From Gammaproteobacteria bacterium (GTDB lineage: Bacteria; Pseudomonadota; Gammaproteobacteria; Steroidobacterales; Foliamicaceae), in assembly GCA_009845905.1 (NCBI GenBank), contig VXYS01000009.1, positions 580,325 through 644,324 on the forward strand: 64,000 nt of DNA, read 5' to 3'. Below are positions 224 to 60,481 of the stretch, piece by piece. The position numbers and the translations under genes are program-made. How positions within the stretch are numbered: the stretch's first letter is position 1; each line of letters begins with the position of its first letter. The notes beneath the pieces were generated by a model. That model saw nothing but the letters and a program-made list of their open reading frames with translations, searched no databases and was not told where the DNA came from.

Positions 224-1131
224 ATCTGATGCGCTATCTCGAGCGGCACCTCGCCTGCTGCCGGTCGGAAGCCGTTCGGCTGGTTCGCCAGCCCATGGGC
301 AGCCTGCTGACGGTGGCCGCGATCGGGCTGCCGCTGGCCCTGCCCGCGGGCCTGAGCGCGGTGTTGCAGAACATGGAGGGCCTGGCTGCGGCCTGGGGCG
401 AAGCGCGCTCGTTTTCGATTTACCTCAAGCCGAACGTAAGCGTTGCGGTGGCCGAACAACTGGCCGCCGACCTTCAGCGCAATCCCGCCGTCGGGGAGGT
501 TCGGCGGATCAGCCCCGGGGAAGCCCTTGCGATCATGGAGGGCCGCAGCGAGTTTGCCGCGGCGATCGAGACCCTGGAGGAAAACCCCCTGCCGTGGACG
601 CTCGTCATAGCGCCCGCGCCGGGCGCCTCGGAGAACGAATTCCTGGCGCTGCAGGACACCGCGGCCACGCTGGAGGAAGTGGACCAGGTACGGGCCGACA
701 CGCAGTGGCTGCAGAGAATGAGCGCCATACTGGCATTGGCCGGGCAGGCAATGCTGCTGATCCTGGTCATGGTACTGGTGGCGCTTGTCGTCATCATCGG
801 GAATACGGTAAGGCTTGAAATACAGAGGCAGCGGGACGCAGTCGAAGTGATGTCGCTGCTGGGCGCCAGCCGCGGCTACCTGCGCCGGCCGTTCCTTTAC
901 CAGGGGTTCTGGTACGGCCTGGGAGGAGGCCTGCTGGCGGTTCTGCTGGTGCGGCTGGGCCTGTGGACGCTGGGCGGTACTTTCGCCGACCTGATGGCCC
1001 TGTACGAGAGCGATCGCGCGTTGAGCGGCGCCTCGTGGCGACAGGAACTGGCGATCCTGGGGATAGGCGTACTTACCGGCTGGCTCGGCGCCTGGCGGGC
1101 GGTCGCCGGACAGCTCCGAACGATGGAGTAG
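220..1131 (+). CDS. ftsX: Cell-division permease-like protein FtsX
   Basis: 303 aa, translationally coupled to ftsE. N-terminal TM, a large periplasmic loop and three C-terminal TM helices (ILVMVLVALVVIIGN...), which is FtsX architecture. Confidence 0.85.
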   Translation: MNLMRYLERHLACCRSEAVRLVRQPMGSLLTVAAIGLPLALPAGLSAVLQNMEGLAAAWGEARSFSIYLKPNVSVAVAEQLAADLQRNPAVGEVRRISPGEALAIMEGRSEFAAAIETLEENPLPWTLVIAPAPGASENEFLALQDTAATLEEVDQVRADTQWLQRMSAILALAGQAMLLILVMVLVALVVIIGNTVRLEIQRQRDAVEVMSLLGASRGYLRRPFLYQGFWYGLGGGLLAVLLVRLGLWTLGGTFADLMALYESDRALSGASWRQELAILGIGVLTGWLGAWRAVAGQLRTME

Positions 1132-1145
1132 GCGGTTTCGCTCCC

Positions 1146-2120
<975 letters not shown>

Positions 2121-2179: not shown

Positions 2180-2279
2180 GCCCTTCCTTTGCTCACCTCC
2201 TCGTTGGAGACGCCATCCTGGCTCGATTCTCGCTGTCCCTGCTCCAACGCTCCCACGAGGAGGGGAGCAAAGGAAGGGC
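2180..2279. repeat. 100-nt palindromic intergenic element (30-nt arms, 28/30 complementary, 40-nt loop)
   Basis: Left arm gcccttcctttgctcacctcctcgttggag (2180-2209) pairs with right arm ctcccacgaggaggggagcaaaggaagggc (2250-2279). The loop begins acgc and holds ccatcctgg (2213-2221) and gtccctgc (2235-2242) 22 nt apart, resembling the tat-flanking elements. Confidence 0.7.
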
Positions 2280-2353
2280 TCAAGCCGGCACCGCTTGCAA
2301 GAGGAACCGAGGGGCTTGCATTACGTTGCGGCCGGGGTTGTGCTGGCCGGGAT

Positions 2354-10543: not shown

Positions 10544-10989
10544 GCGGCAGAATATGGCATCCCAGGGCGTTCGATCGTCCCGAGCAGCTCAACGCCCTGG
10601 AGAAGGACCGGATGCTGGGACATCTGGGCGTGGAGATTGTCGAGATCGGCGACGACTACCTGCGCGCCCGCATGCCCGTGGACTACCGCACCCAGCAGCC
10701 GTTCGGGTTGCTGCACGGCGGCGCCTCGGCGGTCCTGGCGGAATCGGTCGGAAGCTGGTCGTCCTACCTCACCATGCCTCCCGGCGAATACCAGGTCCTC
10801 GGCCTGGAAATAAACGTCAGCCACCTGCGCCCGGCGAGATCGGGTTACGTGTACGGCACCGCCCGCCCGGTGCGGCTCGGCAGCGTGGTCCACGTCTGGG
10901 ACATACGGATCACCGACGAAGCGGAAGTTTTGCTGAGCATTTCCAGACTGGCGACCTCCGTTCGCCGGCTGAAGCGGCCGAACGCGTGA
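10540..10989 (+). CDS. PaaI/YbdB-type hotdog thioesterase, last gene of the arg operon
   Basis: GTG at 10540 overlaps the argH stop (GTGA). LGVEIVEIGDDYLRARMPV...LLHGGASAVLAES is typical of PaaI-family thioesterases. An alternative ATG lies at 10612. Confidence 0.7.
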   Translation: MSGRIWHPRAFDRPEQLNALEKDRMLGHLGVEIVEIGDDYLRARMPVDYRTQQPFGLLHGGASAVLAESVGSWSSYLTMPPGEYQVLGLEINVSHLRPARSGYVYGTARPVRLGSVVHVWDIRITDEAEVLLSISRLATSVRRLKRPNA

Positions 10990-11021
10990 TAATCTTGCGC
11001 GCGCCGAAGAGGGAGAAACTC

Positions 11022-11363
11022 GTGAAGAAATTACTCGTTGTCGCCTGCGCGCTGGCGCTTGGAGCCTGTGCGGCCCAGCAGTCCGCGGTGCAATCCGCGG
11101 ATGCCGCTCCGGAAGCGCAACAGGCGCAGGCATCCGAAGACTCGGCCGCCGCACGCCGGGAGCAGCGGCGCAAGAGCGATCAGACGTACGTTACCTCGCT
11201 GGAACGCAGGGACAAGACGGGCTCCCGCATCAATCGCGTCCGCCGCAGGGGCGAGCCGGAAGAGGACAACACCGCCGGCAAGCGCGTGGAAACCATTACC
11301 GGGGAACAGCTCGAGGAGATCGAGGAAAGGGGCGGGACCGTAGTTATCGGCGGCGAGGGATAG
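11022..11363 (+). CDS. Small lipoprotein, unknown function
   Basis: GTG at 11022 is 6 nt after gggaga. VKKLLVVACALALGAC is a lipobox signal, followed by a charged low-complexity mature part. Confidence 0.55.
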   Translation: MKKLLVVACALALGACAAQQSAVQSADAAPEAQQAQASEDSAAARREQRRKSDQTYVTSLERRDKTGSRINRVRRRGEPEEDNTAGKRVETITGEQLEEIEERGGTVVIGGEG

Positions 11364-11385: not shown

Positions 11386-11492
11386 GCCCTATCATCGCCC
11401 CCTTCTTCCGGGAGTATTGGAGGCAGGGATGCCGGAGCAAGCTACAGGGATGTATTCATGCGTCTCCCGGAAGAAGGGGGCGATGATAGGGC
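11386..11492. repeat. Palindromic element copy A (perfect 29-nt arms, 49-nt loop), 3' of tatC
   Basis: gccctatcatcgcccccttcttccgggag (11386-11414) is the exact reverse complement of 11464-11492. The loop holds cagggatg twice (11424-11431, 11445-11452). Confidence 0.85.
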
Positions 11493-11508
11493 TACGGTCG
11501 GCGCGCAA

Positions 11509-12282
11509 TCAATCGGCTTCAGGTTCGCTTTTCTTGAGCATCAGCCGCGCCATCAGAATGCCGATCTCGTAGAGCAGGTACATCGGTATGGCCAGCAGCG
11601 TCTGCGAGATCATGTCGGGCGGAGTCACCAGCATTCCCAGCGTGAACGCCCCCAGCAGAATGTAGGGCCGTTTGCTGCCGAGTGATTGCGGGCTGACGAT
11701 GCCCGCGCCCACCAGCATGAGGATAGCGATCGGCACCTCGAAGGCTAGCCCGAAAACAAAGAACAGCACGACCACGAAGTCCAGGTATTCGCCGATATCG
11801 GTCATCATGGCCACGCCTTCGGGCGTTGCGGCGGCAAAGAAACTGAACATGAGCGGGAAAACGACGAAGTAGGCGAAAGCCGCTCCGGCGTAGAACAGGA
11901 ATATGCTGGAGAGCACCAGCGGCAGCGCCACCTTCTTTTCGCGCTTGTACAGACCCGGCGCCACGAAGGCCCAGGCCTGGTATATGACCACCGGCATGGC
12001 GGTGAACAGCGCCACGAAAAAGGCCGTCTTGAAGGGAGTCAGAAACGGCGAGGCCGGCCGGATGGCGACCATCGTGAATCCTTCGGGAAGCTGGCTCATC
12101 AGCGGCGACGCTACCAGCGTGAAAACTTCCTGGGCAAAGGGCACCAGGCCAACGAAAACGACCAGTATCGCGCCGGCCGCCTTCATCAGGCGGGAGCGCA
12201 GTTCGATCAGGTGCGAAAGAAGGCTGGACTCCTCCAGTTCCTCCTTTTCTTCCTTGTCTTTCCGCTCGGACTCGCTATTCAC
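11509..12282 (-). CDS. tatC: Twin-arginine translocase subunit TatC
   Basis: LSHLIELRSRL... followed by six TM helices typical of TatC. Start placed at GTG 12282, overlapping the tatB stop by 8 nt. The ORF-track N-terminal K/R-rich extension to 12450 lies in another frame of tatB. Confidence 0.88.
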   Translation of the reverse strand: MNSESERKDKEEKEELEESSLLSHLIELRSRLMKAAGAILVVFVGLVPFAQEVFTLVASPLMSQLPEGFTMVAIRPASPFLTPFKTAFFVALFTAMPVVIYQAWAFVAPGLYKREKKVALPLVLSSIFLFYAGAAFAYFVVFPLMFSFFAAATPEGVAMMTDIGEYLDFVVVLFFVFGLAFEVPIAILMLVGAGIVSPQSLGSKRPYILLGAFTLGMLVTPPDMISQTLLAIPMYLLYEIGILMARLMLKKSEPEAD

Positions 12283-12643
12283 CGGACTGACTTTGTTCGG
12301 TGTCTTCCTTGCCGGACTCTTGCGCGGTTTCGGCTTCCTTTTCCTTGCCGGATTCCTGCGCGGTTTCGGCTTCCTTTTCCTTCTGCTCGCCGCCCTTTTC
12401 CTTTTGCGCTGTTTTCGGCTTCGCGCCGGCCGACGCCCCGGCGGTCCCACGAGCCGAGAACGGCCTCGGATCGTCCAGATCCACTTCCTGGCGCAACTGG
12501 TACATCAGCGTCCGCGACATGCGCCTCGCCTGCCCCACCCAGCGCCCGAGCTGTGCGGCGACTTTCGGCAGGCGCTGCGGCCCCAGGACGATCAGGCCCA
12601 GGCCCGCCAGCAGCACGAGTTCCGTAAAGCCGATATCAAACAT
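12275..12643 (-). CDS. tatB: Twin-arginine translocase subunit TatB
   Basis: MFDIGFTELVLLAGLGLIVLGPQRLP N-terminus followed by an amphipathic helix; the acidic/lysine-rich tail contains a 12-aa tandem repeat. Confidence 0.85.
   Translation of the reverse strand: MFDIGFTELVLLAGLGLIVLGPQRLPKVAAQLGRWVGQARRMSRTLMYQLRQEVDLDDPRPFSARGTAGASAGAKPKTAQKEKGGEQKEKEAETAQESGKEKEAETAQESGKEDTEQSQSGE
12307..12378. repeat. 36-bp x2 in-frame tandem repeat inside tatB
   Basis: ccttgccggactcttgcgcggtttcggcttcctttt (12307-12342) is repeated at 12343-12378 with 2 mismatches. It encodes KEKEAETAQESG twice. Confidence 0.85.
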
Positions 12644-12708
12644 GGTTCACGTCGTTCGACCGGCGCGGCCGGTCGAGGCGGAGCAACGGGTGCGATAACC
12701 GGGCTGAA

Positions 12709-12951
12709 TCAGGCCTTGGGCGCGTCCTTCTCCTTGCTCTTCGCGCCGGTGTCGGTCTCGCTGAACTCCGCGTCGTTGCGGGCCAGCTTGTCCGGATCGG
12801 CCTTGTCCGGGTCGGCAACGGCCTTGCGGAATCCCTTGATGGCGGAGCCCAGGTCACTGCCGAGGTTCCGGATCCGCGAGGTGCCAAATATCACCAAGGC
12901 GAGCAGCAGCACTACCAGTAGCTGCCAGCCGCTGATTCCGCCAAATCCCAT
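12709..12951 (-). CDS. tatA: Twin-arginine translocase subunit TatA
   Basis: MGFGGISGWQLLVVLLLALVIFGTSRIRNLGSDLGSAIKGFRKA is a canonical TatA/E N-terminus. Confidence 0.9.
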   Translation of the reverse strand: MGFGGISGWQLLVVLLLALVIFGTSRIRNLGSDLGSAIKGFRKAVADPDKADPDKLARNDAEFSETDTGAKSKEKDAPKA

Positions 12952-13093
12952 TATTTCGTCCTCTTAGCGCTCTTGGAGTCTCCGCCGGGTCTATTTTGCC
13001 CATGCGCTACTCGCCTGAGCAGCGCTACGGTAGCTCGTAATCATAACCTCAAGCTCATACTGTCTCACCAGCAACAGCCTTCGCTTTAATTCC

Positions 13094-13201
13094 GCCTTCT
13101 CATTGCCCCCTTCTTCCGGGAGACGCATAAATCCATCCATGTAGCTTGGTTCCGCCATCCATGGCTCACACACTCCCGGAAGAAGGGGGCAATGAGAAGG
13201 C
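13094..13201. repeat. Palindromic element copy B (perfect 29-nt arms, 50-nt loop), between dtd stop and tatA
   Basis: gccttctcattgcccccttcttccgggag (13094-13122) is the exact reverse complement of 13173-13201. The loop is about 75% identical by eye to the reverse complement of the copy A loop and holds ccatccatg twice (13133-13141, 13155-13163). Confidence 0.85.
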
Positions 13202-13659
13202 TACGGTGGGTGAGCGCCCGGATGGGCTTGCAGGAGAATGGTTACCGGCCCCGAGTTGACCAGTTCGACGTCCATGTCGGCGCCATAGACGCCCGTTGCC
13301 ACGCGCACGCCCAGCGCTTTCGATTCGGCCACCAGCCGGTCGAACAGCCGCCGTCCCACGTCGGGCGGCGCCGCCTTCGAAAACCCCGGCCGGGTGCCCT
13401 TGCGCGTGTCGGCCGCGAGCGTGAACTGCGATACCAGCAACAGTTCGCCGCCCACGTCCTTCAGGCTCAGGTTCATCCGGCCGCCGGCGTCCGGAAATAC
13501 GCGATAGCCCACGATGCGCTCCGCCAACCGCCTGGCCTGCGCATCGCCGTCGCCCCGTTCCACGGCGGCCAGCACCAGCAGGCCGCGGCCGATTTCACCG
13601 GATGTCTCGCCATTCACGCTAACTCGCGCGCGGCTGACGCGTTGCAGCAGCCCGATCAT
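13201..13659 (-). CDS. dtd: D-aminoacyl-tRNA deacylase
   Basis: [13 protein letters not shown]... and [17 protein letters not shown], the Dtd signature. The stop codon abuts the last nt of element B. Confidence 0.9.
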
Positions 13660-40211: not shown

Positions 40212-40286
40212 TGGCTGGGGCGGCAGGATTCGAACCTGCGAATCACGGGATCAAAACCCGTTGCCTTACCACTTGGCTACGCCCCA
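40212..40286 (-). tRNA. tRNA-Gln (UUG)
   Basis: Reverse complement TGGGGCGTAGCCAAGTGGTAAGGCAACGGGTTTTGATCCCGTGATTCGCAGGTTCGAATCCTGCCGCCCCAGCCA folds into a cloverleaf. Acceptor 7 bp, anticodon stem ACGGG/CCCGT, loop TTTTGAT, encoded CCA. Confidence 0.92.

Positions 40287-60405: not shown

Positions 60406-60481
<76 letters not shown>

Follow-up and report, generated by a model that had tools for sequence, protein, structure and literature searches.

Hairpin elements at the tat locus

The stretch of DNA analysed here, 64,000 nt from a gammaproteobacterium (the window), carries tatA (12709-12951), tatB (12275-12643) and tatC (11509-12282) on its minus strand, bracketed by two copies of a hairpin element that we call A and B. 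All window coordinates follow the numbering of the full stretch, and L-numbers designate comparison loci or strains. The three genes lie between the copies and outside the element itself; at orthologous loci, Pfam recognizes TatC and TatA_B_E. The neighbouring genes are dtd (gene call at 13201-13659, minus strand) and an unannotated open reading frame (ORF) of 125 aa (10986-11363, plus strand), with copy A in the spacer of convergent genes and copy B in the spacer of dtd and tatA. Our analysis establishes that A and B are copies of a previously undescribed family of hairpin repeats, about 110 nt long, from sponge-associated Gammaproteobacteria, and that their pairing around tatABC is coincidental.

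Copy A spans 11386..11492 with its loop motif on the plus strand (arms 11386-11414 and 11464-11492, loop 11415-11463), and copy B spans 13094..13201 with its loop motif on the minus strand (arms 13094-13122 and 13173-13201, loop 13123-13172). A first-pass annotation, made from the sequence alone, had described both as perfect 29-bp stems whose arms differ at three mirrored positions, and here an inverted-repeat scan and sequence comparison agree. The inverted repeats are 29 nt long and 100% complementary, with a spacer of 49 nt in A and 50 nt in B, and the arms of the two copies (GCCCTATCATCGCC versus GCCTTCTCATTGCC) differ at exactly 3 positions, each mirrored in the partner arm. As had also been noted, the loops are alike only when one is reverse-complemented, with 39 of 50 positions matching (78%, against the earlier figure of about 75%) as opposed to 23 of 50 in the same orientation. 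Each loop holds two occurrences of the annotated direct repeat CATCC(C/A)TG, or CA(G/T)GGATG on the other strand, at a spacing of 21-22 nt. A covariance model scores copy A at 93 bits on the plus strand and 21 bits on the minus strand, and copy B at 92.4 bits on the minus strand.

The reported siting of both copies beside minus-strand stop codons is likewise confirmed. The right end of B overlaps the dtd stop codon (13201-13203), to which its last base belongs, and the end of A lies 17 nt from the tatC stop (11509-11511). TACGGT follows both copies directly on the plus strand. Read on the minus strand, this is ACCGTA at copy A (11493..11498), which by its flank faces the same way as B with the loop inverted, and at B it supplies a CCGTA 5' flank (13202..13206), the TA of which forms the dtd stop TAG together with the first stem base (13201). 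The shared hexamer is no target-site duplication: it complements a CCGTA 5' flank that is common among copies of one sub-family. On the 3' side of B, again on the minus strand, a tail (GGAATTAAAGCG, 13082..13093) matches the family tail consensus GGRATCGAAGCG. Beyond it lies a remnant of an older small hairpin (AAGGCTGTTGCTGGTGAGACAGTATGAGCTT, 13051..13081) into which B was inserted; the remnant aligns with the centre of a 48-nt hairpin in L188/L189 and is absent at empty sites. The Dtd protein itself is 152 aa long in the window and 149 aa in all relatives without copy B, and its three extra codons (AHPG-AHPP, 13201-13230) look like a diverged 12-nt tandem duplication just before B.

Under both RNA and DNA folding the two copies far surpass dinucleotide shuffles (z-scores between -8 and -11; no shuffle folded as well), and a T-shaped hairpin is predicted for both strands of single-stranded DNA of copy A. 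In that fold, mini-hairpin 1 (11422..11433, plus strand) reads GGCA-GGGA-TGCC and has a middle pair that covaries among copies (GC 9, CG 8, AU 5). Mini-hairpin 2 (11443..11454, plus strand) reads TACA-GGGA-TGTA, with pairs varying between UA 13 and CG 9 and between CG 18 and AU 4. Next comes the single-stranded segment that is conserved best, TTCATGCGT (11455-11463, plus strand), whose pattern TT[C/T]ATGCGT is near-invariant across copies. The corresponding mini-hairpins of copy B lie at 13154-13165 and 13132-13143, the latter with one A.G mismatch. On the predicted fold, the element is T-shaped and the CATCC(C/A)TG repeats are the tips of the two mini-hairpins.

A dispersed family with a conserved top

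The first-pass annotation had proposed a dispersed family resembling repetitive extragenic palindromic (REP) sequences or miniature inverted-repeat transposable elements (MITEs), and such a family exists. A 17-mer core, CCCCCTTCTTCCGGGAG, occurs exactly four times in the window, in comparison with an average of 0.32 matches in shuffled sequence even when up to 3 mismatches are allowed. We searched for this core over 185,579 species genomes; the results are the matches listed, and the family counts are lower bounds. Among these matches, pairs of the 17-mer at the right spacing occurred only in metagenome-assembled genomes (MAGs) of sponge-origin Gammaproteobacteria (VYBN01 SB0673_bin_2, JAPOWV01 COS2_bin_9, OZ243929, CBDATM01, OY762933 and OX639965), and further copies with the exact core in one arm only came from the same group of MAGs. 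A metagenome search keyed on the loop (GGATGNNTTYATGCGTCTCC) contributed about 20 more copies with unrelated stems. Searches of the collected DNA with hidden Markov and covariance models bring the total to at least about 45 copies, in several sponge-type gammaproteobacterial genomes and metagenomes and in independent assemblies that include complete long-read chromosomes.

With filters switched off, the covariance model picked out exactly three members across the whole window: A, B and a diverged copy C (hit at 2198-2261). Copy C, of 'type 2' (2180..2279, minus strand, 32.5 bits), lies between divergent genes for an ABC ATPase and argR; its stem of 24 bp contains one mismatch, and its tail occupies 2168-2179. 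Nearby, the outer 13 nt of a right arm (TGCAAGAGGAACC, 2296..2308, plus strand) are the remnant of a fourth element, which is kept in full at the orthologous site L025 7124-7232. The window is 95-96% identical to VYBN01 contigs, and the relative of its TatC that is named to genus belongs to Candidatus Foliamicus (77% identity). Where the family is present its density is about one copy per 20 kb. Six relatives' tat loci not chosen for the element (46 kb in total) contain no copies, and in the tat locus of a seventh, L187, the interval from tatA to tatB holds two full copies and two partial ones.

All 41 copies with examined context are intergenic, between convergent (12), tandem (23) or divergent (4) genes or at locus ends (2), and in the tandem contexts the loop strand is sense in 10 and antisense in 13. 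Clustering of the neighbouring proteins revealed no recurrent neighbouring gene family. Pfam placed seven of eight scanned neighbours in families of housekeeping or other unrelated kinds (ArgR, ABC ATPase, DUF1330, helix-hairpin-helix, two cytochrome c and CorC) and gave no family for the eighth, a 125-aa ORF; no transposase was among the eight. The 1.6-kb segment enclosed by two inverted copies in L044 is nadE. A phage or plasmid origin was considered and rejected, two scans of viral contigs having given only two chance matches without the hairpin, and BLAST searches of plasmid and phage collections gave no match.

The stem has a median length of 29 bp (most copies 26-32 bp), is perfect in 29 of 42 copies, closes with CGGGAG/CTCCCG and has a pyrimidine-rich 5' arm. 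Its sequence is otherwise free: hardly any two copies share the outer 12 bp of their arms, stem identity in the loop-keyed sample is 42-50% versus 73% in the part of the loop outside the search key, and L157 and L163, on one contig, combine near-identical loops with unrelated stems. The loop, 48-51 nt in typical copies, consists in order of a junction, mini-hairpin 1, the linker GGAACCAAGC, mini-hairpin 2 and the segment TTCATGCGT. Mini-hairpin 1 varies as GGCA/GCCA/GACA with a GGGA tip and TGCC/TGGC/TGTC, and mini-hairpin 2 as TACA/TCCA/CCCA with a GGGA or TGGA tip and TGTA/TGGA/TGGG. One sub-family has a loop of 70-71 nt, in which an extra hairpin of about 25 nt replaces the tip of hairpin 1 and lengthens the loop by 21 nt; in other copies (L015 and L038 among them) longer hairpins take the place of one or both mini-hairpins. 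In all sub-families, type 2 included, the spacing of the direct repeats is 20-22 nt. One sub-family is asymmetric, with a 5' flank ending in CCGTA or CCGGA and the 12-nt 3' tail GGRATCGAAGCG, which adjoins the right arm in about 14 copies; the flank varies in metagenome copies.

Covariation in a 23-sequence alignment supports all three helices. Paired bases fill 91% of the cells, compared with 75% after shuffling and 32-52% when partner columns are slid, and the covariation score of 0.44 (0.13 shuffled) was reached by none of 500 shuffles. RNAalifold found the same three helices. The inner 12 bp of the long stem are perfect by construction in this alignment, so the informative pairs are those of the mini-hairpins, among which no G-U intermediate occurs.

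Known classes of structured sequence do not account for the family. At the gathering thresholds of Rfam the elements have no match, and the sole matches in the window are two tRNA genes on the minus strand (40215-40286 and 60409-60481); at relaxed thresholds the elements match only generic models of miRNA-precursor hairpins, with at most 37 bits against thresholds of 55-230. Intrinsic terminators were rejected: the loop is 49-50 nt long, the sequence after the stem (TACGGTCGG or GGAATTAAAGCG) contains no T-run, and a terminator scan was silent at both elements. The attC sites of integrons are imperfect hairpins with R''/R' core sites (GTTRRRY) and extrahelical bases, arranged in cassette arrays beside intI. 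The elements described here, with perfect stems, no core sites and no integrase nearby, and dispersed as single copies among housekeeping genes, do not fit this description.

Other palindromic sequences came to light during the search. After a stop codon in the VYBN01 relative (L025 5853-5950) there is an insertion of about 80 nt without counterpart at window 1130-1147; it is G+C-rich and hairpin-prone (GGGAGGGAGGGCGTCCCGCCCTCC...), resembles a hairpin at L077 1480-1569 and may represent a second repeat family. L110 2496-2583 is another palindromic insertion, missing from the orthologous site in L126; its 28-bp stem is perfect, and its 32-nt loop is unrelated.

Turnover, probable arm copying and flipped loops

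Relatives with TatC proteins 79-94% identical to that of the window share the gene order dtd-tatABC, but their spacers are shorter: 97 nt versus 249 nt in the window between dtd and tatA, and 41 versus 145 nt after tatC. Alignments of orthologous loci show that A and B are both absent in six relatives. Since such close relatives lack them, A and B are, as judged from these alignments, recent and independent insertions into a tat locus that ancestrally had neither. The empty B site of the six relatives reads CATCCGGGGCCGTA|GAGGGTATGATT and ends in CCGTA exactly at the hairpin start, so CCGTA was already present at the target before insertion. In the window, the same site consists of CCGTA, the hairpin, the 12-nt tail and then 31 extra nt. 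Strain L188, with identical TatA and with copy A and its flank identical, has at the B site a different 48-nt perfect hairpin (L188 2352-2401, 20-bp stem, TAGCGCCGTGTCCGGCTGAT...) that supplies the dtd stop codon. Because the extra 31 nt of the window align with the centre of this hairpin, B must have been inserted into the older one. No other copy of the 48-nt hairpin was found in the collected DNA, and the idea that it belongs to another multi-copy family was dropped.

The A site has a comparable history. It reads ...GGCCGCA|AGGGG... in L183, and in L181 holds a small palindrome, CCGCTGCGGGCCCGCAGCGG, which A replaced; in VYBN01 (L049), the orthologous position is taken by a type 2 element, with a solo A-type right arm beside it. 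Upstream of tatA, a conserved TATGAT box has been retained on the downstream side of B. Both the dtd-tatA and the post-tatC spacers are insertion hot spots. The spacer that holds copy A in the window is occupied in L185 (4582-6270; TatC 87% identical) by an insertion sequence with a DDE_Tnp_1 transposase. Within the tat genes themselves, the C-terminal tail of TatB contains a repeated KEKEAETAQESG from a 36-nt tandem duplication (94% identical; 12305-12376, minus strand), and TatB lengths among relatives are 115, 117, 119, 122 and 150 aa.

Compared with L188 and L049 (12991-13260), the window is a mosaic between strains, identical to L188 around A and identical to L049 around B; copy B itself is identical to the copy in the VYBN01 MAG. 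Purifying selection was considered as the cause of this 100% identity, given flanks that are about 95.5% identical, and was rejected. L188 shares A exactly and diverges sharply around B, where it differs from the window at about 10 of 45 intergenic positions, a pattern that points to mosaic recombination between strains.

Other apparent empty sites proved to be partial deletions that keep a fragment of an arm and in some cases part of the loop, and the insertion in L168 carried along about 35 extra nt. Gain, partial deletion and nesting of copies distinguish closely related genomes. The 13-nt arm remnant had raised the idea that the outer stem is an inverted duplication of target DNA; the true empty sites of A and B hold no arm sequence, and the idea was abandoned. 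An uninterrupted target, with the left flank joined to the tail, was likewise sought among the family loci and not found. Target-site duplications, which the first-pass annotation had suggested looking for, did not appear as direct repeats at the flanks of 42 copies or in the filled/empty comparisons for B, A and L168.

Two orthologous pairs chosen without regard to stem sequence bear on how the stems remain perfect. L028 and L059 (91% identical overall) differ at 5 stem positions and copy C of the window and that of L025 (about 95% identical overall) at another 5; in each pair, 5 of the 5 differences are mirrored. The stem of L059 is moreover 5 bp longer, because its left flank now reads as the reverse complement of GAAGG, the right flank common to both genomes, and L025 retains an old left-arm remnant beside a new, perfectly complementary arm of copy C. 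Across these pairs the stems differ at 10 of 50 positions and the loops at 6 of 107 (Fisher p = 0.009); for copy C, differences occur at 11 of 71 positions in the intergenic flanks. With a stem rate close to that of the flanks, the stems drift at a near neutral rate and yet stay paired, and the loops are constrained. Stem mismatches are of the G.T type in 10 cases, two of them from one orthologous pair, and of the A.C type in 5, with no clear wobble bias. Hairpin 1 was swapped as a module at the orthologous loci L126/L130 and L104/L108, which suggests gene conversion between copies.

Template switching is known to homogenize the arms of inverted repeats, to extend stems and to invert spacers, although the published spacer inversions mostly involve a few nucleotides (PMC8794818, PMC8604942) and those described here about 50 nt. 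We infer that the mirrored multi-base changes and the stem extension are the signature of template switching between arms. With a mutational explanation available, selection for compensatory mutations is not needed. The first-pass annotation had left a choice between a hairpin under selection and one copied by a fold-back mechanism; hairpin geometry is indeed preserved, and it is arm copying (all differences mirrored, a 5-bp extension) that fits better than compensatory selection.

Some loops are flipped with respect to their flanks. About 14 copies carry the tail 3' of the loop side that holds TTCATGCGT; in L109, L128 and L069 the loop has the reverse orientation with respect to the tail. Copy A has its CCGTA flank on the same side as B and the opposite loop orientation. 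Identical 49-nt loops occur in both states, one in L044 (5689) and L077 and the other in A and L109. Identical loops in both orientations relative to asymmetric flanks show that the flip takes place within the element, and that insertion in reverse orientation alone does not account for it. The flipped state is the minority, found in about 4 of 18 copies (3-4 of about 18; two-sided binomial p = 0.03 against 1:1, the copies not being independent).

Origin of the repeats and their relation to known systems

The explanation we favour, with a probability of roughly two in three, is that A and B are independent recent insertions of a non-autonomous intergenic repeat of selfish type, broadly of the REPIN or MITE kind, whose stems are kept by templating of one arm on the other. 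The unit of about 108 nt comprises a stem of about 29 bp of free sequence, its CGGGAG/CTCCCG closing and the conserved 50-nt top with two mini-hairpins. During replication, one arm would template the other by template switching at the inverted repeat, so that stems stay perfect. The same switching, or recombination between identical arms, may occasionally invert the loop, and such an inversion would explain why the loop of A is flipped with respect to that of B with the outer flank the same. The conserved T-shaped top would be recognized by a putative mobilizing protein, probably in single-stranded DNA, and any effect on tat mRNA would be a by-product.

Several observations weigh against this explanation. 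A phmmer search of six-frame ORFs of all loci, with an IS200 TnpA query, found no Y1/IS200-like ORF in about 1.4 Mb of loci, which make up a small fraction of any genome, and the RAYT/TnpA(REP) or other cognate transposase that the first-pass annotation had suggested looking for was likewise not found in these loci. There is no recurrent neighbouring gene, the scanned neighbours being mostly housekeeping genes, and we infer mobility from presence and absence. Copy numbers per genome are lower bounds only. Insertions are not clean, as illustrated by B with its 31 nt from an older occupant and by L168 with about 35 nt. Finally, loops are better conserved than stems even between orthologous copies. 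Conservation in place is unexpected for a purely selfish, decaying element and requires gene conversion or a host-level function; the module swaps in hairpin 1 fit conversion. By analogy with other hairpin systems, it is possible, if rather unlikely, that the T-shaped top serves as a module for a putative protein (e.g. an HUH nuclease) that would gauge the length of the stem (about 29 bp, whatever its sequence) and then nick the hairpin and copy it anew, making the family a bacterial chromosomal replicator that spreads and flips by hairpin transfer; alternatively, selection at the host level may maintain the tops as structured platforms of DNA or RNA, which would explain why loops are conserved at orthologous sites while stems drift.

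A rival explanation is that the elements move, or are maintained, by hairpin transfer or fold-back replication. A nick at the hairpin foot (e.g. by an HUH nuclease at GTA|G), followed by unfolding and copying as in parvoviral terminal repeats, would regenerate a perfect stem from one arm and invert the top in each round. It would accommodate the architecture of a long stem with two small internal hairpins, the constant length and free sequence of that stem, identical loops in both orientations against asymmetric flanks and the lack of target-site duplications, and the CCGTA|G flank recalls the GTAG that adjoins the E. coli REP hairpins cut by RAYT. We nevertheless consider it unlikely: flipped copies are a minority, no HUH protein was found in the 1.4 Mb of loci, and stem extension and the old-arm remnant are in-place events for which template switching suffices without a dedicated enzyme. 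Quite unlikely, in our assessment, is a family of host-functional RNA structures (3'-end stabilizers, RNase III sites or factor-dependent terminators) that set transcript boundaries, for instance those of tatABC, under selection on the RNA fold. Many copies do lie 0-50 nt from a stop codon, convergent and tandem contexts dominate with divergent ones depleted (12:23:4), stem length is constant and loops at orthologous sites have changed less than stems and intergenic flanks; moreover, RNase III cleaves long perfect duplexes, and one of 29 bp would be a substrate. Yet the loop strand in tandem contexts is sense about as often as antisense, four copies (C included) lie in divergent promoter regions, no T-run follows the stem and Rfam offers only generic hairpin models far below threshold. 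The random orientation with respect to flanking genes, together with the lack of clear wobble bias in stem mismatches, led us to reject a strand-specific RNA motif, and the mini-hairpins too are without G-U intermediates.

The proposal that the hairpins could shape tat mRNA boundaries finds no support at the locus itself, where close relatives and strains with the same dtd-tatABC order and an otherwise identical operon lack A and B and where L188 carries a different hairpin at the B site. This analysis does not support the elements as part of tat operon regulation. The earlier suggestion that the loop is a duplex DNA site for a dimeric or tandem-binding protein, with two CAGGGATG direct repeats two helical turns apart and the inverted repeat incidental, has the regular repeat spacing of all sub-families (type 2 too) and the superior conservation of the loop in its favour. 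We consider it very improbable. The repeats are the 4-nt tips of two covarying mini-hairpins, the bases beside the GGGA/TGGA motifs change in complementary pairs as expected of hairpins and not of duplex recognition, longer, unrelated hairpins can stand in for hairpin 1 (L015, L038 and the sub-family whose loop measures 70-71 nt), and the elements are not associated with any gene class.

Compared with known systems, the closest kind are REPINs, long extragenic hairpins mobilized by RAYT transposases (Bertels & Rainey 2011, PMC3116915). Both are single hairpins of about 70-110 nt, extragenic, multi-copy and non-autonomous, and the inverted conserved 16-17-mers that lie about 66-71 nt apart in REPINs have a possible counterpart in the CCCCCTTCTTCCGGGAG pair, 66 nt apart in the major sub-family, though stems in the loop-keyed sample are only 42-50% identical. 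In both, the hairpin is maintained by compensatory changes and could alternatively adopt a 'clover' fold; both also leave solo-arm remnants, form clusters, persist in some copies at orthologous sites across species and make no target-site duplication. In REPINs, however, the ends (the REP sequences recognized by the enzyme) are conserved and the centre is variable, whereas in the present family conservation lies in the centre and variation in the arms. Its two small conserved hairpins are repeated directly rather than in inverted orientation, and no RAYT was found in the same limited set of loci. MITEs such as Correia, ERIC, RUP and BOX are similar in length (about 100-150 bp), in their terminal inverted repeats, in being intergenic and often co-transcribed, and in their presence or absence between strains. 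Their terminal repeats, however, are conserved for the transposase and usually imperfect, and they make a target-site duplication (TA in the case of Correia), whereas the present elements combine perfect arms of variable sequence with a conserved interior, and no duplication is seen. Without conserved termini or duplication, the family departs from MITEs of the terminal-inverted-repeat type in two defining features.

Elements of the IS200/IS605 group, with IS608 as paradigm, transpose as single strands by a Y1/HUH mechanism 3' of a short specific target and without duplication. Their palindrome-associated transposable elements (PATEs) offer a suggestive analogy: two similar small direct hairpins on one strand and no target-site duplication. 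A short CCGTA directly 5' of the element, already present at the empty B site (CCGCA at the A site in one relative), may correspond to such a target, and the preference for sites that already form hairpins is a further parallel. PATEs differ in having no long perfect stem around the two hairpins; here, in addition, the flank is conserved in one sub-family only, and no TnpA was found in the loci searched. Parvoviral terminal repeats, which undergo hairpin transfer by an HUH Rep protein and exist in flip and flop states, offer another analogy, those of adeno-associated virus resembling the present element in T shape, long stem, two small internal palindromes and flip/flop tops. They are, however, ends of linear viral genomes processed by HUH Rep, and the elements are chromosomal and interspersed, with single-stranded linkers of 8-10 nt and a minority of flips. 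Template switching at quasipalindromes (the Ripley model; PMC8794818, PMC8604942) accounts for the two features that stood out in the first-pass annotation, namely homogenized, perfectly complementary arms with multi-base compensation and stem extension, and inversion of the spacer between perfect arms; it is a mutational process and not a family of elements, and it explains stems and flips but not spread or loop conservation.

These results carry a general caution: perfect compensatory substitutions and flipped loops can be footprints of DNA copying and are no proof of selection on RNA structure. Conservation is distributed in the opposite way to REPINs and MITEs: the stem is free in sequence yet perfect over about 29 bp, and the top is conserved. 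This suggests that the recognition determinant of the mobilizing machinery may sit in the loop. If machinery with loop recognition were found, it would represent a new way of recognizing such an element. The elements also mark insertion hot spots at existing hairpins and, being strain-variable in uncultured sponge symbionts, could serve for strain typing.

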